Source: Callorhinchus milii
Taxonomy: Eukaryota
Direction: 5' to 3'
DNA: 57,067 bases
Assembly: GCF_018977255.1 (NCBI RefSeq)
Contig: NW_024705278.1
Span: 1-57,067 of the forward strand
Position 1 is the stretch's first letter. Every line of letters starts with the position of its first letter. The notes under the pieces were generated by a model, which saw nothing but the letters and a program-made list of their open reading frames with translations, had not been told where the DNA came from and did no database searches. This document shows positions 3,736 to 54,487 of this stretch, piece by piece. The position numbers and the translations under genes are program-made.

Positions 3736-6003
3736 TATTGACGTATACTTGCTTTTGCATACTAGAGTGTTGTGTTTGTTTAGAATTAAAATTGCTTAAC
3801 ACCAAGTCTCGAGTGTTTCTTCCAAGTCCATGCAAAACTGTCTTATTCTTGAGAACTGTATCCTGTGATGAGATCTGAAACTGGAGACATAAAATAACAT
3901 AACACACACTAAGATAATCGGTAAATGTTTAATCAATGATAATCGTGTTATCCTGATTGAGATAACTCTGGATAAACTAAACTAAACTTAATTATCATAA
4001 CCGCTCGCATTAACATAATCACAAGCATCCGCATAAATTACTACGATTATCTCCGTGATTATCATAAATTTATGCATATAATTACAGACATAATTTATAC
4101 ATATTAATACACACTAACATAATTAATGCGATTTGTGCATTTTTAGGAAAATTATAATTTTTTATTATTTTTATCAAAATTTCATAACCCAACACATACA
4201 ACATTGTTAAACGTGACGGGGGATGTGTGTTGTGACCCCCAGCAAAGGGCAGCTGGGGTGCACGCACAGGGAAAACTGGCGACGCGGTCGAGCGTTGGGC
4301 CACCATTTTGAGCGCGCGCGGGAAATTGCGGGGATGCGCTTGGCGCAGAGGGCCGCCATTTTGAGCGCGCGGGAAAAACTTCGGTGGGGCGCTCGCGCGG
4401 GCCGCCACCATTTTGAGTATACACATCGAGCCGCGGGGATGTGGATATGGATATCATCCCTTGACTCTCGTGTTGCGCTCTAACTTGTGTGCGTGCATTG
4501 CGTGTTGTGTGCAATGCTGGCGTGTTGGCGCCCATCGGGGTAACAGCGTAGTGGCACGTGGCTGACTAAAGAGGGGCATTGTCATTGCACCATCATTTGG
4601 GACAGATGCTGGCTGGGTTCTATTCTGGGGCAAATATTTCATCAGTATATGCCTGCCATTGTTGAGTGGGTGATGCACGAGTTGTGGTCACATCGGCCTA
4701 TGGCCGATGGCTGACCTGACAGCCCGGAGGCGAGACACTCCGTGGTATGTCTCAAACTAATGGGCCGTGGGCTCATATGGTTCGGGGAGTCGTGGTTCAG
4801 TTGTGCGGTGGCAGACTGAACCTGGTGTGCCGGGGGCGCGCGGGATTCAGGAGTAGAGGTTCCGTTACGTGGCAGCGAACGGGGTGACCTGGCTAGCATG
4901 GGGCAGGGATTTCCCTTGCGGGTCCTCCAGCGGGAAGGGCCGCGGACTTGTTCTGCTCTGGGTTAGGGCGTTATTGAATGTGTAAGGGAACATTGCCCGT
5001 GGGGAGGTTGATGGGGTCTGGCCTTGCCGAGGGATGAATCTTCCCTTGGCTATAAAGCGTCAGACTATAAGATGCTGGTGTGTGTCCATCGCTGATGGGA
5101 TAGTAAGGGAGGAGCATGGCTGAGTTGTTGCTCGTCCCCGAAATTGCACTAGCCGAGTGTATGGTCAGTGGATGTTGCTGTGGTTGGACGACCACGGTGA
5201 GGGTGAAGGCGGGTTAAATGTTACCGCTGGGGAGCGTGGCTCTCTCCACGCGAGGGTGTGCGGCTGGGGGCTTTGTTGAGAGTGACAGTGGGTATATGCT
5301 GTGTACGTGAGATGTTTGTGCTGGTCCTCAAGGGAGGACTGCTGGTGGGCAAGAGCAGGAATTTTTGTTGTTGTCACGTGTAAATAATATTGTTTTTAAA
5401 ATGTAAATACTGGGGCATCCATCGCGTCTATTTTGGGTATTTATTGGGGTTTTCTTAAGCGGGCCGGATTTACATAATCTCCACTACCCTGGGGCCGGGT
5501 GGCTGTCGTGTACGACATGCGGATGTGCGTTGTTGTGCTGTGCCTCAGGGGGTTGGATTCTCCTTCTCGTCACAGATCTTCGGCGCCTGCCACACTGGGT
5601 GTTACCGGGTGTGCTAACCGGATGTGGACTTGAAGGGGAATTGAGCGCCCGTTCGTCACACTTGCTCTACCAGTTGCTCTCTGACGTTGGACTTGAGCCG
5701 AGCGGATGGAACAGCAACACGGACACGCTCTAAGACACCGCATTCCTGGGTTATGCGCGTCGGCCGTTCTTGCGTGTCGGTTGCCGTTGTTGTGCATTGT
5801 TCCATTCTTAATTCTTGTTGCTTGTTGTGCGGAGGACGGGCCGGTGTTCTGTACCGGATCCTGATCCCTCCCCGTTCGTTACTTGTGTTGTTATAATCTC
5901 CATTGTGTCTGGGGTGATTCCTGATTGTGATGCCTTCGCTCGCATTATTTTGTCCTGTTTTAGCCGAGGACGGCTGGATTTTTCTTTAGGGGGGGGGGGG
6001 TTA

Positions 6004-6466
6004 TGTAATGCGAGCATAAATGGGAAGGCCGGATGTGACGATCTGAGAGGGAGGAGTCAGGGTCACGTGGGTGAGAGGTTATAGGAGGGTGCCCGGAAGA
6101 GATCTGGGCTAGTTGAGGGAGTGAAGAGGCGAGACCACGTTGGGTGGCCGCCGTGCCATCAGCCGCGAGGCTGATAGGGCTTGGCACCCCGCCAGCTAGC
6201 GGTGTGCGGAGAGAGAGCGGAGTGTGCGGGGCGCACAGGGCGTGCGAGGTTGCACGGGGCTAGCAGAGTGGCTAGCAGGACCGTGCGGGTTGCACGGGGC
6301 TAGCGGAGCGTTCGAGGTTGCATGGGCAGCAGAGTGGCTGCAGCGTGTGCGGGGCGCGAGGAGAGACGACGCTGGGCCGAGGAGGAGGCCAGCGGGGTGC
6401 GGAGGAGAAGAATATAAATAAAGGACCAACGGAGAGTGACATCGTGTGAAGGAGTCCTTTATTACA
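6004..6466 (+). repeat. 3' LTR (463 bp)
   Basis: TG...CA termini with TGTAAT/ATTACA inverted repeat, AATAAA near the 3' end, homologous to 33691-34201, 47858-48363 and 51582-52082. Confidence 0.85.
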
Positions 6467-6828
6467 GAAACATGAATTGCTCATACGAATATTCTCTCTC
6501 TCAGAATCGACCGACTGATGTAGCAGACGAAATAGTAATCTTGTTGAACGATTCTAAACCTTGTCGCGGCAATGTTAGTTTTCTCTGTTCAAGGTTTTAT
6601 CAGTGTTTTGCAATGTTTTTACATTTAGTTTACTATTACACTGAATTCTATGGCATAATTAACTATTGTTGTGCTTAAAAATCTATTTATATACAGTTCG
6701 TAGGAGTCTGGAATGGATTAATCGTATTTACATACAATCCAATGGGGAAATTAAGTTCGAGTCACGACCAAATCGGGTTGTGACCAAAGTTATGGAACGA
6801 ATTATTGTCATGATCAGAGGTTCTACTG
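6467..6828. mobile_element. Right half of Tigger/pogo-like MITE split by the LTR insertion
   Basis: Ends in TIR GAGGTTCTACTG followed by TA. The intact element is seen at 14188-14966. Confidence 0.75.
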
Positions 6829-7316
6829 TACTTGAACTAAGTTACCCGGACTATGGAAGGCGAGGACATGTAATGAAGGGGTCTACAAACATTCTATTGG
6901 TGACATGCTGAGATAGTAACAGGCACGCCCTTACTGCCCGCGTTCCATCCAGTGTCTGAGGGGTTGCGCAATCAGAGGGGAGGCTGAGCGCGTCGCTGCC
7001 TCACCTCTCGTCTCTCCCTGTACTTGCAGCGAAGCTCCGCAAATTTGGCGATTTTGACTACAAATAAGTAATTAAGAAATTTTTTTTTTTAATACACGCT
7101 TTTATGAATGAAATGTACTAGTAATGGCAGAACTCCACGACTCCAGGAAGTGGCCCCGAAGCTTGCCATAACGTAAGGGACAGTGGCCAATTACATCCAA
7201 CGTTAGTCGACCGTGGGGACAATTAGACCCAAGCCGAAACATAACGTAAAAAAGATTGTTTAAAATTATTTTATTTAATGATAGAATATAGTATTGTCAT
7301 CAGTATAGCATAAGTA

Positions 7317-7942: not shown

Positions 7943-8305
7943 TGTCACCCCTGCTTGGTCACCGCCAATATCTGTTCGGTATAGTCCTTATTTGGGCAAA
8001 GCTATGCCCAGTGACTGGCGGCTCATTAACATAATCTAGGATCTAAGCTTTGGTGACTGCAGGAATTGCTCATTGGTTATTTCGGTAAAGAAATTAAATA
8101 AAAAATAAAATTAACATAATATATTCGTTAAAGCCGTCGCGAGTTTGTTTTTTATTGCGACGGGTTCAGCACCCACGCCCCATCATCCCTCGACGCGTGA
8201 CTTTACCGAAAGAGCCAATGAGTGTACAACGAGTTGAGTCATTCCTGCAGTTGACGAAAGCTTCAATTCTCGAATAAGTTATTCAGTTACCCAGCCTGCT
8301 CGTTG

Positions 8306-11934: not shown

Positions 11935-12056
11935 AAGATTGTGTACATATATATATGCGTATATTCATTCTTCTGTGCCTCGATACTGACTTGTAGATGT
12001 TATTTTCTGTCTGCAGCTGTCGCTTCCTCTGACGCTTCCTCTGCAGAATTGGTCTG

Positions 12057-13568
12057 ATGGAGCACAGGCAGTCAGCGCGGCTCGGTACGGCATGGCAACA
12101 ATGGGACCAGCGTGCATACAGCACGGATCGGACTGGAAGTTTGACACGGCACCAGAAAAAACACACGGGAGAGAAACCCTTCAAGTGCAATCTGTGTGAG
12201 ATGGCGTTTGCACATTCATCAAATCTTCAAAGACACCAAAGAACACACACGGGAGAGAAACCCTTCAAGTGCACTCTGTGTGAGATGGCGTTTGCACATT
12301 CATCAACTCTTCAAAGACACCAAAGAACACACACGGGAGAGAAACCCTTCAAGTGCAGTGTGTGTGGGAAGGCATTTTCACAGTCACAACATCTTGCAAA
12401 ACACCAGAGAACACACACAGGAGAGAAACCCTTCAAGTGCAGTGTGTGTGGGAAGGCATTTTCACAGTCATCTTATCTTGCCAAACACCAGAGAACACAC
12501 ACAGGAGAGAAACCCTTCAAGTGCAGTGTGTGTGGGAAGGCATTTTCACAGTCACAACATCTTGCAAAACACCAGAGAACACACACAGGAGAGAAACCCT
12601 TCAAGTGCAGTGTGCGTGGGAAGGCATTTTCACAGTCATCTGATCTTGCAAAACACCAGAGAACACACACAGGAGAGAAACCCTTCAAGTGCAGTGTGTG
12701 TGGGAAGGCATTTTCACAGTCATCTGATCTTGCAATACACCAGAGAACACACACAGGAGAGAAACCCTTGAAGTGCAGTGTGTGTCGGAAGGCATTTTCA
12801 CAGTCACATAATCTTGCACGACACCAGAGAACACACACAGGAGAGAAACCCTTCAAGTGCAGTGTGTGTGGGAAGGCATTTTCACAGTGGTATCTTGCAA
12901 AACACCATAGAACACACACAAGAGAGAAACCCTTCAAGTGCAGTGTGTGTGGGAAGGCATTTTCAAAGTCACGTGATCTTGCAACACACCATAGAACACA
13001 CACAGAGAAACCCTTCAAGTGCAGTGTGTGTGGGAAGGCATTTTCACAGTCGCCTATTCTTGCAAAACACCAGAGAACACACACAGGAGAGAAACCCTTC
13101 AGGTGCACTCTGTGCGGGAAGGCGTTTGCACGGTCACAACATCTTCAAGAACACCAGAGAACACAGAATCATCAGAAAATCCACAAGGAGTGGAGTCTGA
13201 AATCAGCTTGTGAAAGTCAAAGTTCCGTAAGGAGCCCATCCCTCATGAAACAAGTACCGGAAGAAAATCCCAGCTTGGGCACTTTTAAAGGTATCAAGGT
13301 GGAATTTGAAGAGTTGATTGTGAAATGTGAAGAGGTGATTGTGAAATGTGAAGAGGTGACGGTGAAGAGCGAAGAAGTGAAGGTAAAATGTGAAGATGAA
13401 GATTCGACTCCAAAATGGGACCTTCACATCGATGGAGGCAACGTGAAGCAGGAGGGGAATTCTGACTGTGAGGCAGAGCGAGGCAACTCACAGCAGTTTG
13501 TGGAAGTGGAGGTGTGGGTGGACTTCCTAGACAATACAAAGTCAAATGGAGATCCGTTAGATGTGTAA
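12057..13568 (+). CDS. Tandem C2H2 zinc-finger protein, 503 aa, 12 fingers (finger 6 C->R, finger 9 one residue short, finger 12 atypical), acidic C-terminal tail with 6 psi-K-x-E motifs
   Basis: Uninterrupted ORF with repeated CxxC-x12-H-x3-H and TGEKP linkers (84-bp repeats). Candidate splice acceptors CTGCAG| at 12016 and 12046 upstream; AATAAA downstream. Extra upstream coding exons cannot be excluded. Confidence 0.93.
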
Positions 13569-14966: not shown

Positions 14967-16448
14967 TACTTGAACTAAGTTACCCGGACTATGGAAGGCG
15001 AGGACATATAATGAAGGGGTCTACAAACATTCCATTGGTGACATGCTGAGATGGCAACAGGCAAGCCCTTAGTGCCCGCGTTCCATCCAGTGTCTGAGGG
15101 GTTGCGCAATCAGAGGGGAGGCTGAGCGCGTCGCTGCCTCACCCCTCGTCTCGCCCTGTACTTGCAGCGAAGCTCCGCAAATTTGGAGATTTTGACTATA
15201 AGTATGTAAAAAACTTTTTTTTAAAACACGCTTTTATTAAATGTACGAGTAATGGAAGAACTCCACGACTCTAGGAAGTGGCCCCGAAGTTTGCCATAAC
15301 GTAAGGGACGGTAGACAATTACATCCAACGTCAGTTGACCGTGGGAACAATTAGACCCAAGCCAAAACATAACATGTAAAAAAGATTGTTTAAACATTTT
15401 TTATTTAATAATAGAATATAGTATTGTCATCAGTTTGGCATAAGTACAGTGAGGGAAAAAAGTATTTGATCCCCTGCTGATTTTGTGCGTTTGCCCATCG
15501 TGGACAATTAGACCCAAGCCGAAACATAACATATGAAAAATAATGTTTACAAATATATACACATTTATTAAAAAGTATTTAATTAAGTAGAACCAACGTG
15601 ACTTTCCCGAAAAAAACAAAGTATGAATCCTTGCAGTCACGAAAGCTTAAAATCTAGAATTAAGCAGAACGTTTTGTCTATACTCTATATGTATTTAAAG
15701 TTGTGCATTTTGATGTGATGTGACATTTCTCAAACCCCCGCCCCCCTGGTCTCCTTTCTAATAAATCTTTTCTCCTACAACATCAGAGTGCAGCGCCACA
15801 TTAAATAGCACTACAATGACAATAGTTTAAAGCGATTTGAAGCGTGTTTTATATATTGGGGGGGGGGGGGCAGAGCTTTGTGACGTCATATTTGAGGGGG
15901 TCTGACTTTTTGTGACGAGGGGGGGAGGGGGGTCAAAAATCGGCCAAAATCACGTGACGTCATTTATGAACGGCCCCAATACGCAAAACTTGAACTCTGA
16001 TCCCCGTTCTCTGACGTCACCACTAAGCATTACCTCATCGGTGTGAAACGCCAGGGGGGGCGGTGCGCCTCGCTAGTGACGTCATGTCACCCCTGCTTGG
16101 TCCCCGTCGATGTCTGACCCGTACAATCCTTATTTGGGCAAAGCTACGCCCAGTGACTGGCGGCTCATTAACATAATCTAGGATCTAAGCTTTGGTGACT
16201 GCAGGAATTGCTCATTGGTTATTTCGGTAAAGAAATTAAATAAAAAATAAAATTAACATAATATATTCGTTAAAAGCCGTCGCGAGTTTGTTTTTATTGC
16301 GACGGGTTCAGCACCCACGCCCCATCATCCCTCGACGCGTGACTTTACCGAAAGAGCCAATGAGTGTACAACGAGTTGAGTCATTCCTGCAGTTGACGAA
16401 AGCTTCAATTCTCAAATAAGTTATTCAGTTACCCAGCCCCGCTCGTTG

Positions 16449-16548
16449 GGGGCGTGTCTTGTACCCGGAAGTGAATATTACGTCACATCCTGCTGCCGCC
16501 GTAACGTAGCGAGGTAACGAGAAGCTGCCGTTGAAATCCGAGGTGAGA
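16449..16548 (+). promoter_or_regulatory. Putative core promoter of ZNF copy 2 (YY1-like motif changed to GCCGCCGT)
   Basis: Homologous to 8306-8406. Confidence 0.45.
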
Positions 16549-16585
16549 GATTTTCATCGTGGTGGTTGTTGTGGTTGTTGTTGTA

Positions 16586-16850
16586 TTTCGATTTAAAGCT
16601 TTCGTGACTGCAGGGATTCATCTTCTTGTTTCTTTCGGTAAAGTCACGTAGAAGGGAAGTAATAAAATAATAAAAATAAAACATAATAAAACAATTCTCA
16701 CGACGTTTCGGCTACAACGCAAGCAGCCGTCTTCACCTGAAGACGGCTGCTTGCGTTGTAGCCGAAACGTCGTGAGAATTGTTTTATTATGTTTTATTTT
16801 TATTATTTTATTACTTCCCTTCTACGTGACTTTACCGAAAGAAACAAGAA
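16586..16850. mobile_element. Penelope-like inverted pLTR insertion: 36-nt tail plus perfect palindrome (114-bp arms, CC spacer)
   Basis: Absent in units 1, 3 and 4 at this site. 12-bp TSD GTTGTTGTTGTA at 16574-16585 and 16851-16862. Arms 16622-16735 and 16738-16851 are exact reverse complements. Family assignment is inferred from the hammerhead motif and the inverted structure. Confidence 0.75.
16732..16776 (+). ncRNA. Minimal type I hammerhead ribozyme motif
   Basis: Stem I UUCAC/GUGAG; core CUGAAGA plus one extra C; stem II GGCUGC/GUAGCC with 7-nt loop; GAA-ACGU-C with palindromic micro stem III. Predicted cleavage after C16771. Confidence 0.65.
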
Positions 16851-17849
16851 GTTGTTGTTGTAGTTGTTGTTTACCAAGGTAGAGCCTCTCTCTCGTAGGG
16901 ATGTCAATTGAGTCGCAGCGAGTATGGGAATCCATGTCCAGGTTGGGACATTACAACGTGGGGCTTAGTCACGCGGGCCTCGCCTCCTGCCCTCGCCTGA
17001 AGGCCTTTGTTTGAATTCTCTCGCTTCAACTTGATCTGGAAGCTTTCGTGACGGCAGCAGAAATAAAATAAACGAAGAAACAACCAATTTAAGTTAGTTT
17101 TTTCATTTATTTTAGTTGTTTATTCATAATATTTTTTTTCATAATTTTTTTTTAGAGATACACACGTAGGCACAGAGAGAGAGATAAAACAGACAGGCAT
17201 ACATAGGCACACAGAGAGAGACACATAAGCACACAGAGAGAGAGACACACAGAGAGAGATAACACAGAGAGAGATAACACAGACAGAGAGATACACACAT
17301 AGGCACACAGACACACACACATAGGCGCACACATAATCAACAGCTCTGTGACAAGGCCTTAAATAGAGGGAGAAGGCGGCTGAGAGAGAGGGGGGGTAGA
17401 GAAATGAGCATGGCAATGAGAGATTTGGAGCTTTCGTGACTGCAGGAAATATTACAACACGAGGGCACTTTCGGTTTTTATTTTATGTAACTAGGCCAAG
17501 CCCACTTGAGCTGCTGTACCGCTCTTATGATTTGAAGCTTTCGTGAGTGCAGGAATCCATACTCTTTGTTTTTTTCGGTAAAGTCACGTAGGAAGAAAAA
17601 ATAGGTAATAGCATTCGACGTTTCCTTTGCAACACGAGCAATCACCATCAGGTACAAATGAATGAGAAAGCAAAGCTTGTTAACTTGAACTATACTCTTT
17701 GGTTTTTTCGGTCAAGTTATGTAGGTATAAATTAAATAAACTTATAACTACAATGCAATACAACACAGAGAGTCGGCTAAGATAAGTCAACTCCCCACCT
17801 GGTTTATTAACGTTCTTCCAAAGATTGATACATTTGAGAGAGAGAACTA

Positions 17850-18480
17850 AACACAGACACGGAGACACACAGACACATACACACAAGCAGAGAGAGATAA
17901 CACAGACACACAGAGAGAGACACACAGAAGCAGAGAGATAACACGAGAGACAGAGAGAGAGACACACACAGGCACACAGAGAGAAAGCACATACAGGCAC
18001 ACAGAGAGATAACACAGACAGACAGAGACACACACATAGGCACACAGAGCGAGACACACATAGGCACACAAAGAGAGAGAGAGAGACACCACAAAGACGC
18101 ACAGAGAGACACACACACACGTAGGTACACAGAGAGAGATAACACAAAGACAGAGACACACACACAGGCACAGAGAGAGACACAAAGAGAGAGAGAGACA
18201 CACAGGCACACAGAGATAAGAGACAGAGAGAGAGACGCATAGACACACACACATAGGCACACAGAGGGCGACACACATAGGCACACAGAAAGAGACACAC
18301 CGAGAGAGAGACACACAGAGAGAGAGAGAGACACACACATGGACACAGATAGAGACAGAGAGAGACACAGAGGCACACAGAGAGAGACATACACATAGGC
18401 ACACAGAGACACACATAGGCACACAGAGAGAGATAACACAGACACAGAGACACACACATAGGCACACACAGAAACAACAC
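17850..18480. repeat. Expanded compound (CA)/(GA) tract in unit 2
   Basis: About 630 bp versus about 170 bp at the paralogous position in unit 1. Confidence 0.85.
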
Positions 18481-20902
18481 CTGTGTTGAGGCCTTAAATA
18501 GAGAGAGAAGAGGGCTGAGAGAGGGGGGGGGTAGAAAAATGAGCATGGCAATGAGAGATTTGGAGCTTTCGTGACTGCAGGAAATACTACAACACGAGGA
18601 CACTTTCGGTTTTTATTTTATGTAACCAGGCCAAGCCCGCTTGAGCTGCTATACCGCTCTTATGATTTGAAGCTTTCGTGAGTGCAGGAATCCATATTCT
18701 TTGATTCTTTCGGTAGAGTCACGTAGGTAGAAAATGTAATAAATCACGACGTTTTGGGCGCAATACAAGCGTCCGCTCTTGTTTTCCGAAGCGACCTTCC
18801 CGCACAACAAAGGTGGGCTTTGTCAACGTGTGGAAATGACTATCGGTCAAAGGCTCTAAACGCGTGCTGATATTCACTTTTAAATGTGGAGGGGGATCTG
18901 GAGGAAAATCCACGCCACCACAGAGAGAGAGGGAGACACGCAAACTCAGCCGTGTTGATTTCATCCTGAATTATTTGGTGGAGTGAGGAAGCATTGAAAA
19001 CGTTTTGGTTTAGCCATGTTTGTTTTTTTGTAGTACACAGTTAGCCTGATAACTTTAATCTAAATTGTCCTATGGTTGTTTTTGTTGACTTGCATCCCAC
19101 TGGGATTTTCTGCATAAAGCGTTGAAATGCGGTGTTTTTTCTGCAGTTTTTTCCTGGAATTTTCTGTTGCGTGTAGTCACTTTAAGATGTTTCTTGTTCA
19201 CGTTTTTGTTAGTTGCGTTTGCCCCCGAGTCAAGAGCCACATGGCTCACGGGGTTATCTATATATAAAAGGGAAATTTGTGAATGTTTAGCATACTTTCC
19301 GACATGCAACAAACTTGAAATTTGGCATGTGGGTACCTTCCAGACTGTACACAATGCAAAAAGTATAAAAATTGACTTTTGCATTTTTCTGGGGGGGGGG
19401 GTGGGGCGCAATAATGGATATATTTTGCACGGCAAGTGAGCGGTGACCTCACGTCTGTGATGTCACCCGCATGCGGCAGCGTCACGTTGTGTGCATTCTG
19501 ACGTTACGCATCCCCCACCCCCCATCCTCCGCGTAGGCCGTGGATTCATTCAAGACAAGAATCCAAGTCTCGGGCGAAGCCAGGTAGTAAAGCTAGTACC
19601 TAATAAATGAAACTGAAACATTAATACTGAGCAGATGAAGGTGTGTGGCCAGGCATGGTTCTGGACACGCCACCACCTGTTTAACGCGGCAGTGTGTGGC
19701 AGTGTCAAGTTTGTGTTTGCAGTAAAGTCTATTAACTCTTGAACACGGAGGATATATGAAAACAATGGTTTATGTTTTTTGTTTTCATCTGGAACTCTTT
19801 ATGAGAATGGAAGCAGTCAGGAAGTTGACACAGCACACATACAGCTGACGTTAGATCTGTTCATCCCAGCATTCAAGGAAATCTGAGCCTGGCTTCACAC
19901 CTCTAAGTTGCGATTGAACATGAATTTATGCATAACACAAGTAGTATTATTTTCAACACCCTTTGCTATGTCAGCTGAATTTAGCTCTTATGAATATTCA
20001 TTTTGTAGCCAGACAGCCAAAATTGTGTGCTTGGAGTTTTGGGTTAACATTCATTTTGAAGATACGAGGGCTTCCAGGAATGTTTATGACCATTTGCCCT
20101 CTCATAGTGCGCCATAACAGCCCGTGTGATGAATTTCGGTAACTTTTTAACTCTATCATGAATATATGAATACATATAGACATGTTAGTCATGTGTGACT
20201 GTGTTTATATATGCTCTTTGGTTCTTTCGGTAAAGTCACGTAGGTAGAAATAAAATAAGTAATATTTTTAAAAACTCTTTTAAAAACACGCTTTAATGAA
20301 ATGTACTAGTAATGAAAGAACTCCACGACTCCAGGAAGTGGCCCCGAGGCTTGCCATAACGTAAGCGACCGTGGTCAATTACAGCCAACGTCAGTTTACC
20401 GTGGACAATTAGACCCAAGCCGAAACATAACATGTAAAAATATTGTTTAAAAGAAAATGTTAATGATAGAATATAGTATCGTCATCAGTATGGCATAAGT
20501 ATACTAAGTTTGCAGTCGATACCACATTGGGAAGTGGGTTAAAATGTAGTTAGAAGATTTCAGGATACAACAATGACAAAAATGACAACAACAGACAGAG
20601 CGAGTTAAATGAAAGCGTGTATTAAAATAAATCACAGCAGACATCTCAGCTATCGCGATTTCACCCGAAGACGAACGCTTGTGTTGCATTCGAAACATCG
20701 TCATTTATGTTATTTTTACCTACGTGACTTTACCGAAAGAACCATAGAGTATGTATTCATGCAGTCATGAAAGCTTCAAATCAAGATTGTGTACATATAT
20801 ATGCGTATATTCATTCTTCTGTGCCTCGATACTGACTTGTAGATGTTATTTTCTGTCTGCAGCTGTCGCTTCCTCTGACGCTTCCTCTGCAGAATTGGTC
20901 TG

Positions 20903-22433
20903 ATGGAGCACAGGCAGTCAGCGCGGCTCGGTACGGCATGGCAACAATGGGACCAGCGTGCATACAGCACGGATCGGACTGGAAGTTTGACATGGCACCA
21001 GAAAAAACACACGGGAGAGAAACCCTTCAAGTGCAATCTGTGTGAGATGGCGTTTGCACATTCATCAAATCTTCAAAGACACCAAGAACACACACGGGAG
21101 AGAAACCCTTCAAGTGCACTCTGTGTGAGATGGCGTTTGCACATTCATCAACTCTTCAAAGACACCAAAGAACACACACGGGAGAGAAACCCTTCAAGTG
21201 CAGTGTGTGTGGGAAGGCATTTTCACAGTCACAACATCTTGCAAAACACCAGAGAACACACACAGGAGAGAAACCCTTCAAGTGCAGTGTGTGTGGGAAG
21301 GCATTTTCACAGTCATCTTATCTTGCCAAACACCAGAGAACACACACAGGAGAGAAACCCTTCAAGTGCAGTGTGTGTGGGAAGGCATTTTCACAGTCAC
21401 AACATCTTGCAAAACACCAGAGAACACACACAGGAGAGAAACCCTTCAAGTGCAGTGTGCGTGGGAAGGCATTTTCACAGTCATCTGATCTTCCAAAACA
21501 CCAGAGAACACACACAGGAGAGAAACCCTTCAAGTGCAGTGTGTGTGGGAAGGCATTTTCACAGTCATCTGATCTTGCAATACACCAGAGAACACACACA
21601 GGAGAGAAACCCTTGAAGTGCAGTGTGTGTCGGAAGGCATTTTCACAGTCACATAATCTTGCACGACACCAGAGAACACACACAGGAGAGAAACCCTTCA
21701 AGTGCAGTGTGTGTGGGAAGGCATTTTCACAGTGGTATCTTGCAAAACACCATAGAACACACACAGAGAGAAACCCTTCAAGTGCAGTGTGTGTGGGAAG
21801 GCATTTTCAAAGTCACGTGATCTTGCAACACACCATAGAACACACACAGAGAAACCCTTCAAGTGCAGTGTGTGTGGGAAGGCATTTTCACAGTCGCCTA
21901 TTCTTGCAAAACACCAGAGAACACACATAGGAGAGAAACCCTTCAGGTGCACTCTGTGCGGGAAGGCGTTTGCACGGTCACAACATCTTCAAGAACACCA
22001 GAGAACACAGAATCATCAGAAAATCCACAAGGAGTGGAGTCTGAAATCAGCTTGTGAAAGTCAAAGTTCCGTAAGGAGCCCATCCCTCATGAAACAAGTA
22101 CCGGAAGAAAATCCCAGCTTGGGCACTTTTAAAGGTATCAAGGTGGAATTTGAAGAGGTGATTGTGAAATGTGAAGAGGTGATTGTGAAATGTGAAGAGG
22201 TGATTGTGAAATGTGAAGAGGTGACGGTGAAGAGCGAAGAAGTGAAGGTAAAATGTGAAGATGAAGATTCGACTCCAAAATGGGACCTTCACATCGATGG
22301 AGGCAACGTGAAGCAGGAGGGGAATTCTGACTGTGAGGCAGAGCGAGGCAACTCACAGCAGTTTGTGGAAGTGGAGGTGTGGGTGGACTTCCTAGACAAT
22401 ACAAAGTCAAATGGAGATCCGTTAGATGTGTAA
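20903..22433 (+). pseudogene. ZNF paralog 2 (12 fingers, near-identical to copy 1) with two 1-bp deletions; pseudogene or sequencing error
   Basis: Length 1531 = 1512 + 21 (extra VIVKCEE unit) - 2. One A is missing at ~21084 and one at ~21765. Confidence 0.75.
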
Positions 22434-23775: not shown

Positions 23776-25242
23776 TACTTGAACTAAGTTACCCGGACTA
23801 TGGAAGGCGAGGACATATAATGAAGGGGTCTACAAACATTCCATTGGTGACATGCTGAGATGGCAACAGGCAAGCCCTTAGTGCCCGCGTTCCATCCAGT
23901 GTCTGAGGGGTTGCGCAATCAGAGGGGAGGCTGAGCGCGTCGCTGCCTCACCCCTCGTCTCGCCCTGCAAATTTGGAGATTTTGACTATAAGTATGTAAC
24001 CTGTAAAAAACTTTTTTTAAAAACACGCTTTTATTAAATGTACGAGTAATGGAAGAACTCCACGACTCTAGGAAGTGGCCCCGAAGTTTGCCATAACGTA
24101 AGGGACGGTAGACAATTACATCCAACGTCAGTTGACCGTGGGAACAATTAGACCCAAGCCAAAACATAACATGTAAAAAAGATTGTTTAAACATTTTTTA
24201 TTTAATAATAGAATATAGTATTGTCATCAGTTTGGCATAAGTACAGTGAGGGAAAAAAGTATTTGATCCCCTGCTGATTTTGTGCGTTTGCCCATCGTGG
24301 ACAATTAGACCCAAGCCGAAACATAACATATGAAAAAGAATGTTTACAAATATATACACATTTATTAAAAAGTATTTAATTAAGTAGAACCAACGTGACT
24401 TTCCCGAAAAAAACAAAGTATGAATCCTTGCAGTCACGAAAGCTTAAAATCTAGAATTAAGCAGAACGTTTTGTCTATACTCTATATGTATTTAAAGTTG
24501 TGCATTTTGATGTGATGTGACATTTCTCAAACCCCCGCCCCCCTGGTCTCCTTTCTAATAAATCTTTTCTCCTACAACATCAGAGTGCAGCGCCACATTA
24601 AATACGCACTACAATGACAATAGTTTAAAGCGATTTGAAGCGTGTTTTATATATTTGGGGGGGGGGGCAGAGCTTTGTGACGTCATATTTGAGGGGGTCT
24701 GACTTTTTGTGACGAGGGGGGGAGGGGGTCAAAAATCGGCCAAAATCACGTGACGTCATTTATGAACGGCCCCAATACGCAAACTTGAACTCTGATCCCC
24801 GTTCTTTGACGTCACCACTAAGCATTACCTCATCGGTGTGAAACGCCAGGGGGGGCGGTGCGCCTCGTTAGTGACGTCATGTCACCCCTGCTTGGTCACC
24901 GCCAATATCTGTTCCGGTATAGTCCTTATTTGGGCAAAGCTACGCCCAGTGACTGGCGGCTCATTAACATAATCTACGAACTAAGCTTTGGTGACTGCAG
25001 GAATTGCTCATTGGTTATTTCGGTAAAGAAATTAAATAAAAATAAAATTAACATAATATATTCGTTAAAAGCCGTCGCGAGTTTTTTTTATTGCGACGGG
25101 TTCAGCACCCACGCCCCATCATCCCTCGACGCGTGACTTTACCGAAAGAGCCAATGAGTGTACAACGAGTTGAGTCATTCCTGCAGTTGACGAAAGCTTC
25201 AATTCTCGAATAAGTTATTCAGTTACCCAGCCCCGCTCGTTG

Positions 25243-25752: not shown

Positions 25753-25955
25753 AATTTCGATTTAAAGCTTTCGTGACTGCAGGGATTCATCTTCTTGGTT
25801 CTTTCGGTAAAGTCACGTCGAAGGGAAGTAATAAAAATAACCTGAGGACGGCTGCTTGCGTTGTGGCCGAAACGTCGTGAGAATTATTTTATTATGTTTT
25901 GTTTTTATTATTTTATTACTTCCCTTCTACGTGACTTTACCGAAAGAACCAAGAA
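25753..25955. mobile_element. Penelope-like inverted pLTR insertion with partly deleted left arm; hammerhead core at 25842
   Basis: 12-bp TSD GAGGCACAC(G/A)TA at 25741-25752 and 25956-25967. Contains CTGAGGA-CGGCTGC..GTGGCC-GAAACGTC. Confidence 0.7.
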
Positions 25956-28805
25956 GAGGCACACATAGGCACACTGAGAGAGACACATAGGCACACAGAG
26001 AGAGAGAGAGAGACAGAGAGAGATAACACAGAGACAGAGAGATACACACATAGGCACACACATAATCAACACCTCTGTGACAAGGCCTTAAATAGAGAGA
26101 GAAGGGGGCTGAGAGAGGGGGAGGGGGTAGAGAAATGAGCATGGCAATGAGAAATTTGGAGCTTTCGTGACTGCAGGAAATACTACAACACGAGGACACT
26201 TTCGGTTTTTATTTTATGTAACCAGGCCAAGCCCACTTGAGCTGCTGTACCGCTCTTATGATTTGAAGCTTTCGTGAGTGCAGGAATCCATACTCTTTGT
26301 TTTTTCGGTAAAGTCATGTAGGAAGAAAAAATAAGTAATAGCATACGACGTTTCCTTTGCAACACGAGCAATCACCATCAGGTACAAATGAATGAGAAAG
26401 CAAAGCTTTAAATCGAAATTTAAAGCAAAGCTTGTAAACTTGAACTATACTCTTTGGTTCTTTCGGTAAAAGTTACGTAGGTATAAAATTAAATAAACTT
26501 AGAACTACAATGCAATACAACACAGAGAGTCGGCAAAGATAACAGTCAACTCCCCACCTGGTTTATTAACGTTCTTCCAAAGATTGATACATTTGAGAGA
26601 GAGAACTAAACACAGACACGGAGACACAGACACACAAGCAGAGATAGATAACACAGAGAGAGATACACACAAGCAGAGAGAGATAACACAGACACACAGA
26701 GAGAGACACATAAGCAGAGAGATAAAACAAACACACAGAGAGAGAGACACACATAGGCACACAGAGCGAGACACACATAGGCACACAGAGAGAGATAACA
26801 CAGACACCGAGACACACAGAGACACACACACATAGGCACACACAGAAACAACACCTGTGTTGAGGCCTTAAATAGAGAGAGAAGGGGGCTGAGAGAGGGG
26901 GGTGGGTAGAGAAATGAGCATGGCAATGAGAGATTTGGAGCTTTCGTGACTGCAGGAAATACTACAACACGAGGACACTTTCGGTTTTTATTTTATGTAA
27001 CCAGGCCAAGCCCGCTTGAGCTGCTATACCGCTCTTATGATTTGAAGCTTTCGTGAGTGCAGGAATCCATACTCTTTGGTTCTTTCGGTAGAGTCACGTA
27101 GGTAGAAAATAAAATAAATCACGACGTTTTGGGCGCAACACAAGCGTCCGCTCTTGTTTTCAGAAGCGACCTGCCCACACAACAAAGGTGGGCTTTGTCA
27201 ACGTGTGGAAATGACTATCGGTCAAAGCTCTAAACGCGTGCTGATATTCACTCTTAAATGTGGAGGGCGATCTGGAGGAAAATCCACGCCAACAGAGAGA
27301 GAGAGGGAGACACGCAAACTCAGCCATGTTGATTTGATCCTGAATTATTTGGTGGAGTGAGGAAGCATTGAAAACGTTTTGGTTTAGCCATGTTTGTTTT
27401 TTGTAGTACACAGCCTGATAACTTTAATCTAAATTGCCCTATGGTTGTTTTTGTTGACTTGCATCCCACTGGGATTTTCTGCATACAGAGTTGAAATGCG
27501 GTGTTTTTTCTGCTGTTTTTTCCTGGATTTGTTTGTTGCGTGTAGTCACTTTAAGATGTTTCTTGTTCACGTTTTTGCTTGTTGCGTTTGCCCCCGAGTC
27601 AAGAGCCACATGGCTCACGGGGTTATCTATACATAAAAGGGAAATTTGTGAATGTGTATCTGTTCTAAATGTTTAGCATACTTTTCGACATGCAACAAAC
27701 TTACAATTTGGCATGTGGGTACCTTCCAGACTGTACACAATGCAAAAAGTATAAAAATGGACTTTTGCATTTTTCTGGGGGGGGGGCGCAATAATGAATA
27801 TATTTTGCACGGCAAGTGAGTGGTGACCTCATGTCTATGATGTCACACGCATGCGGCAGCGTCACGCAGTTTGCATGCTGACGTCACGCACCCCCCACCC
27901 TCCGCGTAGGCCGTGGATTCATTCAAGACAAGAATCCAAGTCTCGGGCGACGCCCGGTAGTAAAGTTAGTACCAAATAAATGAAACTGAAACATTAATAC
28001 TGAACAGATGAAGGTGTGTGGCCAGGCATGGTTCTGGACACGCCACCACCTGTTTAACGCGGCAGTGTGTGGCAGTGTCAAGTTTGTGTTTGAAGTAAAG
28101 TCTATTAACTCTATTGAACACGGAGGATATATGAAAACAATGGTTTATGTTTTTGTTTTCATCTGGAACTCTTTATGAGAATGGAAGCAGTCAGGAAGTT
28201 GACGCAACACACATGCAGCTGAGGTTAGATCTGTTCAAACCAGCATTCAAGGAAATCTGAGCCTGGCTTCACACCTCTAAGTTGCGATTGAACATGGATT
28301 TATGCATAACACAATTAGTATTATTTTTAACACCCTTTGCTATGTCAGCTGAATTTAGCTCTTATAAATATTCATTTTGTAGCCAGACAGCCGAAATTGT
28401 GTGCTTGGAGTTTTGGGTTAACATTCATTTTGAAGATACAAGGGCTTCTAGGAATGTGTATGACCATTTGCCCTCTCATAGTGCGCCATAACAGCCTTTG
28501 TGATGAATTTGGGAAACTTTTTTTTATCATGAATATATGAATACGTATAGACGTGTTAGTCATGTGTGACTGTATTTATATATTCTCTTTGGTTCTTTCG
28601 GTAAAGTCACATAGGTAGAAATAAAATAAGTAATATTTTTAAAAATTATTTTAAAACAAGCTTTTATGAAATGTACTAGTAATGGAAGAACTCTACGACT
28701 CCAGGAAGTGGCCCCGAGGCTTGCCATAACGTAAGCGACCGTGGTCATTTACAGCCAACGTCAGTTTACCGTGGACAATTAGACCAAAGCCAGAAACATA
28801 ACATG

Positions 28806-29409: not shown

Positions 29410-30770
29410 CAGTGAGGGAAAAAGTATTTGATCCTCTGCTGATTTTGTGCGTTTGCCCACTGACAAAGAAATGATCAGTCTATAATTTAATGGTAGGTTT
29501 ATTTGAACACTGGGAGACAGAATAACAACAACAAAAAACACATGTCAAAAATGTTATCAATTGATTTGGATTTTAATGAGGGAAATAATTAGTTGACCCC
29601 TCTGCAAAACATGACTTAGTATTTGGTGGCAAAACCCTTGTTGGCAATCACAGAGGTCAGACGTTTCTTGTAGTTGGCCATCAGGTTTGCACACATCTCA
29701 GGAGGGATTTTTTCCCACACCTCTTTGCAGATCTTTTCCAAGTCATAAAGGTTTCGAGGCTGACGTTTGGCAACTCGAACCTTCAGGTCCCTCCACAGAT
29801 TTTCTATGGGATTAAGGTCTGGAGACTGGCTAGGCCACTCTCGGACCTTAATGTGCTTCTTCTTGAGGCACTCCTTTGTTGCCTTGGCCGTGTGTTTTGG
29901 GTCATTGTCATGCTGGAATACCCATCCACGACCCATTTTCAATGCCCTGGCTGAGGGAAGGAGGTTCTCACCCAAGATTTGACGGTACATGGCCCCGTCC
30001 ATCGTCCATTTGATGCGGTGAAGTTGTCCTGTCCCCTTAGAAGAAAAACACCCCCAAAGCATAATGTTTCCACCTCCATGTTTGACGGTGGGGATGGTGT
30101 TCTTGGGGTCATAGGCAGCATTCCTCCTCCTCCAAACACGGCGAGTTGAGTTGATACCAAAGAGCTCCATTTTGGTCTCATCTGACCACAACACTTTCGC
30201 CCACTTGTCCCCTGAATCATTCAGATGTTCATTGGCCAACTTCAGACGGGCATGTATATGTGCTTTCTTGAGCAGGGGGACCTTGCGGGCGCTACAGGAT
30301 TTCAGTCCTTCACGGCGTAGTGTGTTACCAACTGTTTCACCAAACTGCTTGGCGATGGTCTTGTAGCCAATTCCAGCCTTGTGTAGGTCTACAATCTTGT
30401 CCCTGACATCCTTGGAGAGCTCTTTGGTCTTGGCCATGGTGAAGAGTTTGGAATCTGATTGATTGCTTGCTTCTGTGAACAGGTGTCTTTTATACAGGTA
30501 ACGAGCTGAGATTAGGAGCTCACTCTTAAAGGGAGTGCTCCTAATCTCAGATTGTTACCTGTATTAAAGACACTTGGGAGCCAGAAATATTTCTGATTGA
30601 GGGGGGTCAAATACGTATTTCCCTCATTAACATGCAAATCAATTTATAACATTTTTGACATGCGTTTTTCTGAATTTTGTTGTTATTCTGTCTCTCCCTG
30701 TTCAAATAAACCTACCATTAAAATTATTGACTGATCATTTCTTTGCCAGTGGGCAAACATACAAAATCAG
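29410..30770 (-). mobile_element. Tc1-family DNA transposon with long (~200 bp) TIRs; right TIR tip deleted
   Basis: Starts TA+CAGTGAGGG. ~30600-30770 is the reverse complement of ~29440-29600. The last ~28 bp of that TIR and ~95 bp of flank are missing relative to unit 1. Confidence 0.9.
29616..30437 (-). CDS. Tc1 transposase (DD34E), 273 aa, in-frame deletion in the N-terminal DNA-binding region
   Basis: [10 protein letters not shown] start, [22 protein letters not shown] and [11 protein letters not shown] motifs; 34 residues between the second D and E; shorter than the typical ~340 aa. Confidence 0.9.
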
Positions 30771-31070
30771 AGTGAGTTAAATGAAAGCATGTATAAAAAT
30801 AAATCACAGCAGACATCTCGGCGATTGCGATTTTCACCCGAAGACGAACGCTTGTGTTGCATTTGAAACGTCATTTATGTTATTTCTACCTACGTGACTT
30901 TACCGAAAGAACCAAAGAGTATGGATTCCTGCAGTCATGAAAGCTTCAAATCAAGATTGTGTACATATATATGCGTATATTCATTCCTCTGTGCCTCTAC
31001 TGACGTGTCGATGGTATTTTCTGTCTGCAGCTGTCGCTTCCTCTGACGCTTCCTCAGCAGAATTGGTCTG

Positions 31071-32733
<1,663 letters not shown>

Positions 32734-33690: not shown

Positions 33691-35451
33691 TGTAATGCGA
33701 GCGTAAATGGGAAGGCCGGATGTGACGATCCGAGAGGGAGGAGTCAGGGTCACGTGGGTGAGAGGTTATAGGAGGGAGCCCGGAAGAGATATGGGCAGTC
33801 GAGGGAGTGAAGAGGCGAGACCACGTTGGGTGGCCGCCGTGCCATCAGCCGCGAGGCTGATAGGGCTTGGCACCCCGCCAGCTAGCGGTGTGCGGAGAGA
33901 GAGCGGAGTGTGCGGGGCGCACAGGGCGTGCGAGGTTGCACGGGGCTAATAGAGTGGCTAGCGGGACCTTGCGGGTAGCACGGGGCTAGCGGAGGGCTAG
34001 CGGAGCATGCGAGGTTGCACGGGCAGCAGAGTGGCTGCAGAGTGTGCGGGAGCACACGGAGCAGCGGGGTGGCTGCAGAGTGCGCGGGGCGCGAGGAGAG
34101 ACGACGCTGGGCCGAGGAGGAGGCAAGCGGGGTGCGCAGGAGAAGAATATAAATAAAGGACCAACGAAGAGTGACATCGTGTGAAGGAGGCCTTTATGAC
34201 ATTGGAGTCAGAAGTGGACTTTTTCAAGGCTAAATAACATCGAGGAAGAGGGCCGAGAACTTGAAAAAGTGTAACCCACTTGTTACGTCTTTCGACGACG
34301 AAGAAACGGCCGCCGGCGCACGTCCTCCAGCGGCCACGTGGTGGTCCAACTTGAATCGCTGCGGGCCGTTCTGCCTGGTTTTTTCACCCTGGTGGCGCCG
34401 GCGACGAGGCAGGATCGGCCACGCGGCAGGCCTGAAAGCGGTGAGCCTTCGAGTGGGGCTGAGCCGTCCGCCATTGGGGCCTGGCCCACGCTTCCCGTCC
34501 TCTCCGACACGCGGCAGGGCGCCGCCATCTTGGGTGTGGTCGGGGAGGATAGGTGGGAAGCCACCATCTTGTCGTCGCCGCGGCGGGAAGCCACCACCAT
34601 CTTCAATATTGCGGCGGAGAGGTGGCCGTGCGCTGCCATCTTGGAGGCGCCGTGTGGTGTGCAGCCTGCTGCTGAGCTGCTGTTTTGCGGGGAGGAGCCG
34701 CGAGGAGAGGACGCCGACGCTGCTGCTGCTGGGCGGGAGCACTCCCGTCCTGGCTCGTGTACGAGACACCGGAGCAGTCAAGGGAGGACGCTGCGCTCAC
34801 CGTTCGAGTTTTGCGAGGCGTTTCAAGTTAACATCCTGCCGTCCTCTGCTCGCTGCAGCCCGGGCGAGTCGTAACGATATGCACCCGGCCCTAACACACA
34901 CCTCACCCATCTAGTGTGTGCCGGGGTGCGATTGTTGTCATGTCTTGAGCGTACAGAGCGCGGTTCGGGCTGTGTGTGTGTGTTAACGATGGACGCGCTA
35001 TCTGCTTGTTTGCTCAGTGTCAAATAGTGTGTGTGCGTTGTGGCGTGGAGTTGTTATCTTGATGGCGAAGTTAATTATTAATTCGGTTGTGTCGTGTATC
35101 CCGCGCTGTACCATCCCGTGGGTTGCCGTGTGCGACATGGTTAATTGAAAAAAAAAAATTTGGGTGTTGTTGCTGCATGGTACGACTGAGTTAATGGTGT
35201 GTCTGCCTGCAGCTCTGCTTGCTATTGTGCATGAATTTACGCTTGTGATCGCGATATGCTGACTGCATGTGCTGTATACACTGTTCTGTACGGATACGGA
35301 GTGCTGTGCATTGGTTGTGTGTACCTGTTAGGAAATTGTTCAAAATTCGGGGGGGCCCAAAAATTTGGTCGTATGAGTGTTCATGCACACGAGATTGCGT
35401 GTGTGTTAAAGCAAATTGCGAGTGTTGAGAGATGGGGCCGTAAATTGCCGC
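33691..35451 (+). mobile_element. LTR element copy 2: 5' LTR 33691-34201, PBS 34203-34217, internal region truncated by the gap
   Basis: TGTAAT...ATGACA followed by TGGAGTCAGAAGTGG, which resembles the complement of a tRNA-Leu 3' end (TGGTGTCAGAAGTGGGAT). Confidence 0.85.
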
Positions 35452-35481: not shown

Positions 35482-38400
35482 TTTACTTCACTAGCGGTCG
35501 GTTTTTGCTAATTTGTCTAGGACTAAAATCCCCTAATGGGATAACCCGTAAGCCCCCTTCATATAATCTTGCTGGCCTTAGAAGGGCTAGATTTAGTGCA
35601 GGACGGAACGCGGTAAAGTCAGTTGCCTGAAGTGACATCGCACTCGTCCAATCGACTCCACCTCGAGTTAAGTGGGTGGATGGCGCCCTAATATAAGCGT
35701 CGTCGATCGATCGGCTATTATTAACGAGCCCCCGTGACTGGGTTCGGCGAGCTCCGCTGTAGCGTCGGGATACACCTTCGTTTCATCTAACATGATCCCT
35801 TCGCGGTGCATAGCACGTTTTAACTGACAATTTCATGTATCAAATAATCCTACACGGAGCCTCTTGCATAATGCGGCTCCGAATGGACCACTTAACCTAC
35901 ACAAGGACCACGCGGACCCTTTAGATTGTTGCGGAAAGCGACTCAGTGACATGATCCCATATCAGGGTTTACCATTGTGGATGTTGGTTATGGTCGTGGA
36001 AGAGCAAACGCGAAAAGAGCGACCGCCCCAGACCTCGTAATTTCCTAAAAACACTATGCAATCAGCTTGCCTGCGTCTGATTGGAAACACCTACTTTACA
36101 TCCCTCCGGTCCGCCAAAGTGCGTGACGTAGAAGGCGTGATGTGTATGGACGGTCGCATCGCGTGATCGTTAGCAGCGGATGTGTCCCTGGTCAATTTCA
36201 TTCGTCAGGGTACCTCATTCATGTACGGTTTACTTAAAGACGCCTCCAGACTCTGGCAACTTAACAGGACTATAGGTTGTGGATCGTCGATTAGCCGCAA
36301 TGAGGACCTGGACCTTTATCGGAATTCAACTCATAGGGTCTCCAGACCTAGTGTAACGTGACCTAAACGTCCGCAATTGAATATAGAGGGTAAACAGATG
36401 TCCTGCGGTAACGGGGTATCAGCCGAAAGCCAGGAGGTACGAATTTGTGGACATCGTGCCCTACGTCTAAAGTTTCAATGTGGTCTCTGTGTGTGAGGCT
36501 TCTCATTCCGTGACTTGACTCAACCGGACTATGGTGGTCTGTTCGCGTCGGTCTCGACAGGAACGTTCGCATTGTATCTTGACGTATCCTCGTAGGGAAC
36601 GTAACAGTTCTTGCAGAATCGATGGGGTACAGCCACCGGGACCATAAGTAGTAGGCGGACGGAGGAGGCCCGAAGTCGATCTTCGCATAAGGTCTTCCGG
36701 TTTTGGGCTAAATGAATGAGATGCTGGATATCCCTCTAGGTGAAAGTCAGGTACGCGGGTTGGTCACCAGCCGGTCCCGCCGACTCGACCCGCACTCCTC
36801 CAAAGCTGGTATCGGCGGAAACTTATCCCGGGAGTGTGGCCTCACACATATACAACGATAAGCCAATAGGCCTTAATACGATTGTGGCATCTGGCAGACA
36901 GCCGCCTAGATAGTGCACAGGTTATTACGGCTTGGCCTCGCTTCGGATATTCATGCGCAGGTGAGGCATCCAGTTTGGCTTGTGATACGAATAACTCGAT
37001 AGATTGAACGTGAGAAAGTATCCAGACGTGCTTTACGTCCAAGGAACAGCAGGTGGATTCGGTACCGGGAGTCCACACCAGGCAGATGTTGTATCGAATG
37101 ACAACTGAATACAGTAAAGGTAATAGTAAGTTGGGGCTGAATGCAATGCATAGCACCTGTGGTATGCGCAACATAGCGTACTTATCTTGCAAGAATGAGA
37201 ATCGCTAAACTAATTAGTGGGATCTCACTGGAGACAGGACCGAGCTGGCTATGGACATGGGCTTGGTACGGCAGTAAGTGAGGCAACGAGGTGTGAAGAA
37301 GCGGGTTTCCTAACTGGTGTCTATACCGGAACCATGTCGTGCCAGAGAACATGCAAGGAGGTAGACGTACGGCGGAACCAAAATGCTAGGCTAGCTTACA
37401 ACTTGGACTGATGGATGCGAGGCGCAGAATGACACCCGAATAAAGATCATATGAGACGTAGATGGACCATTTGTACGGGGTATTGCAACCTGTAGAGGAG
37501 CTGCATACTTACTCGCACCTGGTCCGACAGTCGCGGCATCAATTATACAATCAGATGCGTATTATAACGGCCCCGGGAGGAGAATAGTGAACAATCGCTG
37601 GTACTCCAGCTATCATAAATGCGAAACTCTGAAAGGTGCCCATGCAGGAATAGGTGTTTTCGGGACGCCATCTGCGTTTAAGAGAGCTGGAACGCAATGA
37701 ATATGCTTCTAACTACTGGTATGATGATGAGTACCGAGTGTTAAAGCAGGATTGATTGCAGCCGCAATACTTACCGGTTAGACAAATAGTTAGGCAGGGG
37801 GTAGTCTACAGGTGAATTCTCCAGTCATAGGGCTTTGGTAAACCATTTGTTTAGGTGCTTTCTCACGTTGTGTAGGTGGTCGTGACTCCAAAAGTTAGGC
37901 GTTGATGATTCCTATCATGTATTTCAACAAGGCTGGCTGCCGGTCTCATGCTCTGTCGTAACAACGGCCTTTTAAGGATAAACGTGTGGGGGTATCCGAC
38001 AATTAAGACACCTCATTAGCATATTTGGCATGATGCGTGTTTTAACCTTTTGAAAGGTTGCAACTGTTAATCATCTGACACCATGGGCGACTCAAACATT
38101 CGCTCGACCTGGGGATTCCTACGAGTGTGTTGCAGGGGGGCTGGGAGGATGGAGGCGGCAATATTCGACTACTGTTTAAAGGGCGACGAAATCCAGAGGG
38201 CGTGACGCTTAAGTCGTCTCTGGTATCATCCTTAAATGCTTCCAAGCTCCGAACTGGTCAGATCGACCATCGGGGGTGTGACGAATTTACCCGATCTGTT
38301 ACAGAAGACATAAGTGATACAGGTTCGGTATGATCCCTAACGGAGATTCCACACTAATCCTTTCGGGTGAAAAAACGTCGATGTTTCCGTGATACCAGTC

Positions 38401-47225: not shown

Positions 47226-47419
47226 CGCGATGGATGGGAGCCAGTGACATGGGGTGAGGTCTGTGGCTGATGGAGGCACCGGGGGCGTGGCCTCACCGAA
47301 GGGGGGGTGTGTCTGACGCCCCCCCTCAGTGAGGCAGATGTGATAGCTGCCGACCCTGGTGCTTTTTCATTGCAGTTTTCATGACGAGATCAGCGAGCCT
47401 ACGTATCTTTATACACATA

Positions 47420-54284: not shown

Positions 54285-54487
54285 AATTTCGATTTAAAGC
54301 TTTCGTGACTGCAGGGATTCATCTTCTTGGTTCTTTCGGTAAAGTCACGTCGAAGGGAAGTAATAAAAATAACCTGAGGACGGCTGCTTGCGTTGTGGCC
54401 GAAACGTCGTGAGAATTATTTTATTATGTTTTGTTTTTATTATTTTATTACTTCCCTTCTACGTGACTTTACCGAAAGAACCAAGAA
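54285..54487. mobile_element. Penelope-like insertion shared with unit 3
   Basis: Same sequence, deletion and TSD (54273-54284 and 54488-54499) as 25753-25955. Confidence 0.7.

Follow-up and report, generated by a model that had tools for sequence, protein, structure and literature searches.

How did a perfect palindrome with a hammerhead ribozyme motif at its centre come to lie in the predicted first intron of a zinc-finger gene, and does it matter to that gene? The stretch of Callorhinchus milii DNA in which it is found (contig NW_024705278.1, 57,067 nucleotides, here called the window) consists of C2H2 zinc-finger (ZNF) gene units clustered in tandem, four of them with a promoter block in view; Pfam zf-C2H2 matches the 511-aa frame of unit 1 (12033-13568). 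In an alignment of the four paralogous sites, unit 2 alone (one of the four paralogous units in the window) carries 265 extra bp (16586-16850), which start 43 nt into its predicted 4.3-kb 5′-UTR intron, as judged from the DNA letters alone. It is highly probable that this insertion is a recent, ORF-less stub of a Penelope-like retroelement (PLE), likely of Poseidon type, made of the element's 3′ end in duplicate, head to head, with the tail on one copy only, that it likely arose by twin target-primed reverse transcription, and that its ribozyme is, by prediction, catalytically silent in place. Its anatomy, its family relation to other copies and the match of its motif to a published Poseidon hammerhead are direct observations, and the insertion is an ordinary example of an already published architecture. 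Coordinates are collected in Table 1.

Table 1. Features of the unit 2 insertion, of its host gene and of the sister insertion (positions in the window).
Feature	Position	Strand	Details and basis
Predicted ZNF promoter and non-coding first exon of unit 2	16440..16548	+	Exon end 16542, donor GT 16543; sequence only
Left copy of the 12-bp target-site duplication	16574..16585	+	Inside (GTT)n tract; identical to 16851-16862
Unpaired 36-nt tail, the 3′ end of the element	16586..16621	- (element sense for left arm)	Unpaired in arm comparison; same end on many family copies
Left arm, tail-bearing pLTR end	16622..16735	-	114/114 complementary to right arm
Minimal type I hammerhead	16732..16776	+	Stem I 16732-36/16772-76; core 16737-43; extra base 16744; stem II 16745-50/16758-63; GAAA 16764-67
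Loop of 2 nt	16736..16737	+	16737 is hammerhead C3; flanked by 4-bp mini inverted repeat, likely native to the element; arm comparison, older copy at 20660, published lamprey motif
Right arm, tail-less pLTR end	16738..16851	+	Last base shared with right duplication; arm comparison
Right copy of the 12-bp duplication	16851..16862	+	Identical to 16574-16585
Predicted acceptors and C2H2 zinc-finger coding exon of unit 2	20862..22433	+	Acceptors 20862 or 20892, ATG 20903; paralog comparison
Sister insertion of the same subfamily, unit 3	25755-25956	.	Tail, short left arm, full right arm from the same start, 12-bp duplication with 1 mismatch
Copy of the sister insertion, unit 4	54287-54488		0/202 differences from 25755-25956

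Apart from the tail, the insertion consists of two arms (16622-16735 and 16738-16851) that pair at 114 of 114 positions around a loop of 2 nt; the runner-up among exact hairpins in the whole window has 15 bp and is located on the N gap. The 12-mer on either side of the insertion occurs as a single copy in the aligned empty site of unit 1. The preliminary description of this locus, made from the letters of the sequence, had proposed exactly this anatomy: 265 bp unique to unit 2, a 12-bp target-site duplication (TSD), an unpaired 36-nt tail and two exactly complementary arms of 114 bp. The four-site alignment and the arm comparison bear it out, with one caveat for the duplication. The insertion site is a (GTT)n tract, which is shorter in units 3 and 4, and hence the duplication alone is weaker evidence than it would be in unique DNA.

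The arms belong to a repeat family. An nhmmer search of the window with the element end gave 48 matches, 33 of them at E < 0.01; two are the arms themselves and many are paralogous copies. The 3′ end of the element is constant and the 5′ extents vary, nearly all copies with E < 0.01 reaching either the tail end or the tail-less end. Seven family copies at this threshold lie around unit 2, four of them inside its predicted first intron, and older relics of the family are present in the predicted first introns of units 1-3. In each of the four units, older relics of the element end are also arranged head to head immediately 5′ of the predicted promoter (16181-16412, 8041-8269, 24983-25205 and 53526-53742). 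A MITE or foldback DNA transposon was considered and rejected, given that one end has 36 unpaired nucleotides and that copies are 5′-truncated and often single-armed.

A young sister insertion is present in units 3 and 4 and absent from units 1 and 2. It and the unit 2 insertion both have the head-to-head arrangement with an inverted partial pLTR, a one-sided tail (36 nt in the unit 2 insertion, 36-38 nt in the sister) and a duplication (matching at 12/12 and 11/12 positions, respectively). The left arm of the sister is shortened to ~46 bp and ends where only 1-2 nt of microhomology are present. The right arms of the two insertions differ at 5 of 117 positions, two of which are inside the ribozyme and are tolerated there (position 7, and a U-A pair changed to U-G). 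A sister-specific variant is found in both sister arms, and the arms of the unit 2 insertion differ at 0 of 114 positions. Identity within an insertion, differences between insertions and a variant carried by both arms of the sister together indicate that the mirror arm is built separately for each insertion. As an aside, the sister insertion can serve to order the duplications within the cluster.

The motif at the fold point (16732..16776) shows the core boxes of a minimal hammerhead, an extra base after A9, the pair G10.1-C11.1, a palindromic 15.2-16.2 (the 2-nt remnant of stem III) and stems I and II. From the descriptor scan, the fold of the isolated motif, stem II covariation and the published alignment, cleavage is predicted after C16771. 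A strict descriptor of minimal hammerheads, run on both strands of the window, has three matches (16737, 25842 and 54374) as against 0.005 per window in 200 shuffles, and only the match at 16737 has a stem I of at least 3 bp. The complete minimal hammerhead that had been noted on the ZNF sense strand is thus confirmed by a descriptor match with a 5-bp stem I, and its predicted cut had been placed correctly. The hammerhead models of Rfam, proposed there as a check, did not recognise it: the search of 15000-18500 gave no hammerhead family at E ≤ 5, and only 10 sub-threshold matches of hairpin type. A miRNA precursor was rejected, as Rfam gave only generic hairpin models below threshold. In seven aligned rows, representing five insertion events, 85.7% of stem II cells are paired and three of the six pairs show two-sided changes, with shuffle controls of the covariation that are modest (7/500 to 150/500) and rows that are related. 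Stem I is poorly kept among older copies (57.1% paired in the same seven rows and five events). The loop is not symmetric, and the minus-strand copy of the hammerhead in the left arm therefore reads G at position 3, a base that abolished cleavage in the Poseidon element of the anole according to the experiments described in PMC11167929.

The motif also points to the identity of the element. By eye, 16733-16775 equals the minimal hammerhead of Petromyzon marinus (Fig. S3 of PMC4209133) at 38 of 43 positions, with the GAAA column of the lamprey entry, printed apart in the source text, positioned according to the consensus line. The two agree in stem I, in the core, in the extra base and in the context of cleavage; one change is in the loop, and the four differences in stem II amount to two compensatory swaps. 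Table S1 of the same paper links the lamprey hammerhead to a partial Poseidon ORF. The minimal hammerheads reported there from the pLTRs of metazoan PLEs (lamprey Poseidon) share with the unit 2 motif the extra base between positions 9 and 10.1, the pair G10.1-C11.1, a 6-bp stem II, a stem I of 4-5 bp and the palindromic 15.2-16.2; minimal hammerheads on opposite strands, 100-700 bp apart, are also described (Cervera and De la Peña 2014, PMC4209133). Unlike the lamprey entry as it appears in that source, the unit 2 motif has no adjoining ORF, carries another variant of stem II and is predicted to be masked by the perfect hairpin at whose apex it lies.

Neither a reverse transcriptase (RT) nor a GIY-YIG family of Pfam was found in the 147 frames scanned, of 185 listed for the window. 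The scan covered stop-to-stop frames of at least 62 aa in non-redundant parts of the window, with the unit 1 ZNF frame as a control, and left aside microsatellite frames, GC-rich duplicated ends, overlapping frames and frames across the insertion; its matches were, in full, a Tc1-type transposase, zinc fingers and one sub-threshold DUF. Because no RT or GIY-YIG ORF lies beside any copy in the scanned frames, the link to Poseidon rests on the 43-nt motif and on architecture. Exact-motif scans of metagenome contigs and of viral contigs gave 0 matches each. Nor is native upstream sequence of the element recoverable from the window, since the upstream flanks of the five hammerhead-bearing insertions show no similarity in nine of ten pairs, the tenth being explained by the inverted arm.

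The architecture itself is characteristic. PLE insertions are described as having an inverted 5′-truncated copy, a tail of 30-40 bp on one end and a bias towards microsatellites (PMC8557442), which the (GTT)n target fits, and as having TSDs of 8-10 bp and head-to-head palindromic junctions (PMC3846280). The EN+ PLE insertions presented by Arkhipova et al. 2013 (PMC3846280) and Craig et al. 2021 (PMC8557442) likewise combine head-to-head arms, a tail on one arm, a TSD, a palindromic junction and a simple-repeat target. In the unit 2 insertion, the two copies are cut to ~150 and 115 nt and the entire insert is palindrome, whereas the examples in these two sources mostly keep ORF sequence, and its TSD has 12 bp, compared with the published 8-10 bp. 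The lamprey motif and this published architecture support the earlier assignment to a Penelope-like element with a minimal type I hammerhead and an inverted partial pLTR with tail. Non-LTR retrozymes, as presented in bioRxiv 10.64898/2026.07.22.740005 (see also PMC7229834), are likewise non-coding and PLE-derived and have a type I hammerhead, but they are head-to-tail tandem repeats cut at successive ribozymes. A retrozyme was rejected for the unit 2 insertion, which is head to head and has one intact core, and whose unit is not in tandem in the window.

Its origin may be reconstructed as follows. The element endonuclease would have nicked both strands 12 bp apart within the (GTT)n tract, and each 3′ end would have served as primer for cDNA synthesis on element RNA, the two priming positions being the tail end and a point 36 nt inside. 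Both cDNAs would then have crossed the uncleaved hammerhead to about its 5′ edge, where the two ends may have annealed via the 4-nt mini inverted repeat around the loop before fill-in. Two such nicks and two such priming sites give exactly the layout of the unit 2 insertion. Nicking and extension of both strands by the anole Poseidon protein have been shown in vitro, with starts at two sites that delimit the tail and with mainly uncleaved RNA as substrate (PMC11167929). The unit 2 insertion fits the following features of this element, Anolis Poseidon PAc (Frangieh et al. 2024): two RT starts delimiting a tail of 30-40 nt, cutting and extension of both strands, and mainly uncleaved RNA. The ORF of PAc starts inside the hammerhead, which is not seen here, and the head-to-head junction is not derived in the parts of that study drawn on here.

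Several details of the junctions bear on this scheme. In both young insertions the duplication starts with G, which is the last base of the tail-less arm. Their tail-less arms start within 1-5 nt on the upstream side of C3, which puts these starts ~35 nt ahead of the predicted cut site; similarity also ends at this boundary in two older copies (a fifth is ambiguous). An arm that starts just upstream of the hammerhead core, and not at the cut site, fits twin-primed reverse transcription of uncleaved RNA. The 5′ strand of stem I and the core form the 4-bp mini inverted repeat, which is apparently native, being also found in the older copy at 20660 and in the lamprey motif. It gives 4 nt of microhomology at the unit 2 junction, so that the stem I strand may be either native sequence or the terminus of the left arm. 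The polarity of the loop says that the tail-less cDNA ran through it. Tentatively, and with rather less than even confidence, these observations suggest a more general rule: when uncleaved RNA is primed from both strands, the effective 5′ boundary would be the 5′ edge of the hammerhead and not the cut site, and the cDNAs would be joined via the mini inverted repeat of stem I and core. The ribozyme would then act as a structural stop and a joining point, not as scissors, and perfect products would be born self-masked. In the open-access literature we found no paper in which the 5′ junctions of PLEs are connected with the 5′ edge of the hammerhead, and none that names twin priming for PLEs. The unit 2 insertion is a clean and very young specimen with an empty paralogous site, in which nick spacing (12 bp), RT starts (36 nt apart) and junction can be read at base resolution. 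As such it bears on the formation of inverted PLE ends, a step that the literature cited here calls undefined.

Two other origins of the palindrome have to be considered. A fold-back artefact of sequencing or assembly might be suspected from the perfection of the arms, in an assembly with many 1-bp indels in short homopolymers, but it is extremely improbable: the flanks are colinear with the paralogs on both sides, there is a 12-bp duplication, the tail is one-sided and the loop asymmetric, and an independent sister insertion with the same ends is identical in two units. A search of sequencing runs with 16300-17150 found part of this region in 20 of 24 rows (11 studies) and at least half of it in 14, the best share being 0.67, a search in which flanks, repeat and filled allele are not distinguishable. 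In the more serious competitor the element is the same, but an antisense template would have folded back and primed itself at the native 4-bp mini hairpin to give the palindrome, one tail being lost later, as proposed for rotifer Penelope. The fold point does coincide with the apparently native mini inverted repeat, and self-priming on an antisense template has been put forward for head-to-head palindromes (PMC3846280). This route is nevertheless unlikely. The sister has the same right-arm start, but its left arm ends at a microhomology of only 1-2 nt; if the tail-less strand simply snapped back, copying would proceed into the flank and not into a tail; and two-strand priming at two start sites has since been demonstrated in vitro (PMC11167929). 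By inference, twin priming ranks ahead of antisense self-priming, the two not being firmly distinguished.

If unit 2 is transcribed, its intron would fold as a 114-bp hairpin that buries the ribozyme before the ribozyme can fold, and the hairpin would most likely be spliced out with the intron. The RNA hairpin is predicted at -201.5 kcal/mol. The left arm is transcribed first, and by fold prediction 8 nt of transcribed right arm are enough to nucleate the hairpin. As equilibrium predictions, the costs of forcing the hammerhead fold are 51.1 kcal/mol at completion of the ribozyme and 66.2 kcal/mol with the full hairpin, compared with 3.6 kcal/mol for the isolated motif. These predictions (51-66 kcal/mol) support the earlier suggestion that the hairpin masks the ribozyme. 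The sister hammerhead has an intact core on the ZNF sense strand and a stem I of only 2 bp, and is predicted to escape full masking.

Two effects on the host gene had been envisaged, self-cleavage of the ZNF pre-mRNA and silencing of this paralog. Cleavage in place, by a monomer or by a dimer with another transcript, could draw on an intact core, stem II and 5-bp stem I on the sense strand, and intronic ribozyme cutting can lower splicing in the system of PMC10274809. The balance is strongly on the other side: owing to masking, the hammerhead fold would cost 51-66 kcal/mol, and the right arm is predicted to be zipped up by the left arm during transcription as soon as its first 8 nt are out; in the assays of PMC4209133, minimal hammerheads did not cleave as monomers and cleaved little as dimers; and the anole Poseidon hammerhead required the element's protein (PMC11167929). 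For these reasons self-cleavage in place, which the analysis does not support, is very unlikely. Silencing is a less remote prospect, though still quite improbable. The insertion would lower unit 2 expression either by way of the 114-bp dsRNA hairpin, which lies 79 nt from the donor (by A-to-I editing, small RNAs, chromatin silencing or interference with splicing), or through imported poly(A)-signal hexamers; were this paralog-specific effect real, a 265-bp insertion would have switched off one gene copy. A perfect 114-bp RNA duplex is a plausible substrate for ADAR or Dicer, this one has the very low predicted energy given above, and the left arm contributes four canonical poly(A) hexamers in sense orientation. 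However, pairing in the hairpin would engage these hexamers, two such hexamers are already nearby in the empty intron, and small RNAs would match the repeat family and not the ZNF exon. Four older relics (E < 0.01) are, moreover, already in the unit 2 intron and are common to other units, and two apparent frameshifts and private promoter changes would be other candidate causes of any low unit 2 expression. An under-representation of hammerhead-bearing retrozymes in Xenopus introns, reported in bioRxiv 10.64898/2026.07.22.740005, is a further point in favour of silencing. The effect of the insertion on the unit 2 gene is probably small or nil.

The host gene has its own peculiarities. Compared with the open frame of unit 1, the ZNF exon of unit 2 has 1-bp deletions at 21083 and 21764, four substitutions in 1557 bp and a gain of a 21-bp in-frame repeat; both deletions sit in short homopolymers and are thus possibly assembly errors. 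The ZNF of unit 3 (31047-32733) is broken over several frames, and the frame breaks of units 2 and 3 may reflect either pseudogenes or indel errors of long reads. The predicted promoter (16440..16548) has what we take to be ETS-, CRE- and YY1-like motifs. Changes private to unit 2 in the promoter region are found at 16073-16126, 16414, 16463 and 16501; about nine of the differences from both units 1 and 3 are clustered, and one of the private changes falls inside the presumed YY1-like motif. Between 14616 and 17160, unit 2 is a mosaic: upstream it is nearer to unit 3 (17 substitutions in ~1970 bp, vs 75 to unit 1) and downstream it is like unit 1, with the switch near the promoter and first intron, close to the insertion.

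Elsewhere in the window, the minus strand of 29616-30554, within the unit 3 intron, has a 312-aa frame of a Tc1/mariner-type transposase (HTH_SB, DDE_3, HTH_Tnp_Tc3_2). Unlike the repeat-rich surroundings, the ~11.7 kb right after a gap of 30 N (35482-47226) share no similarity with other parts of the window, lack copies of the family and gave no Pfam match in scanned frames. GC-rich duplicated blocks are present in three copies (1-1339, 34294-35451 and 48456-49814) and in two copies (4204-7269 and 49810-52888).
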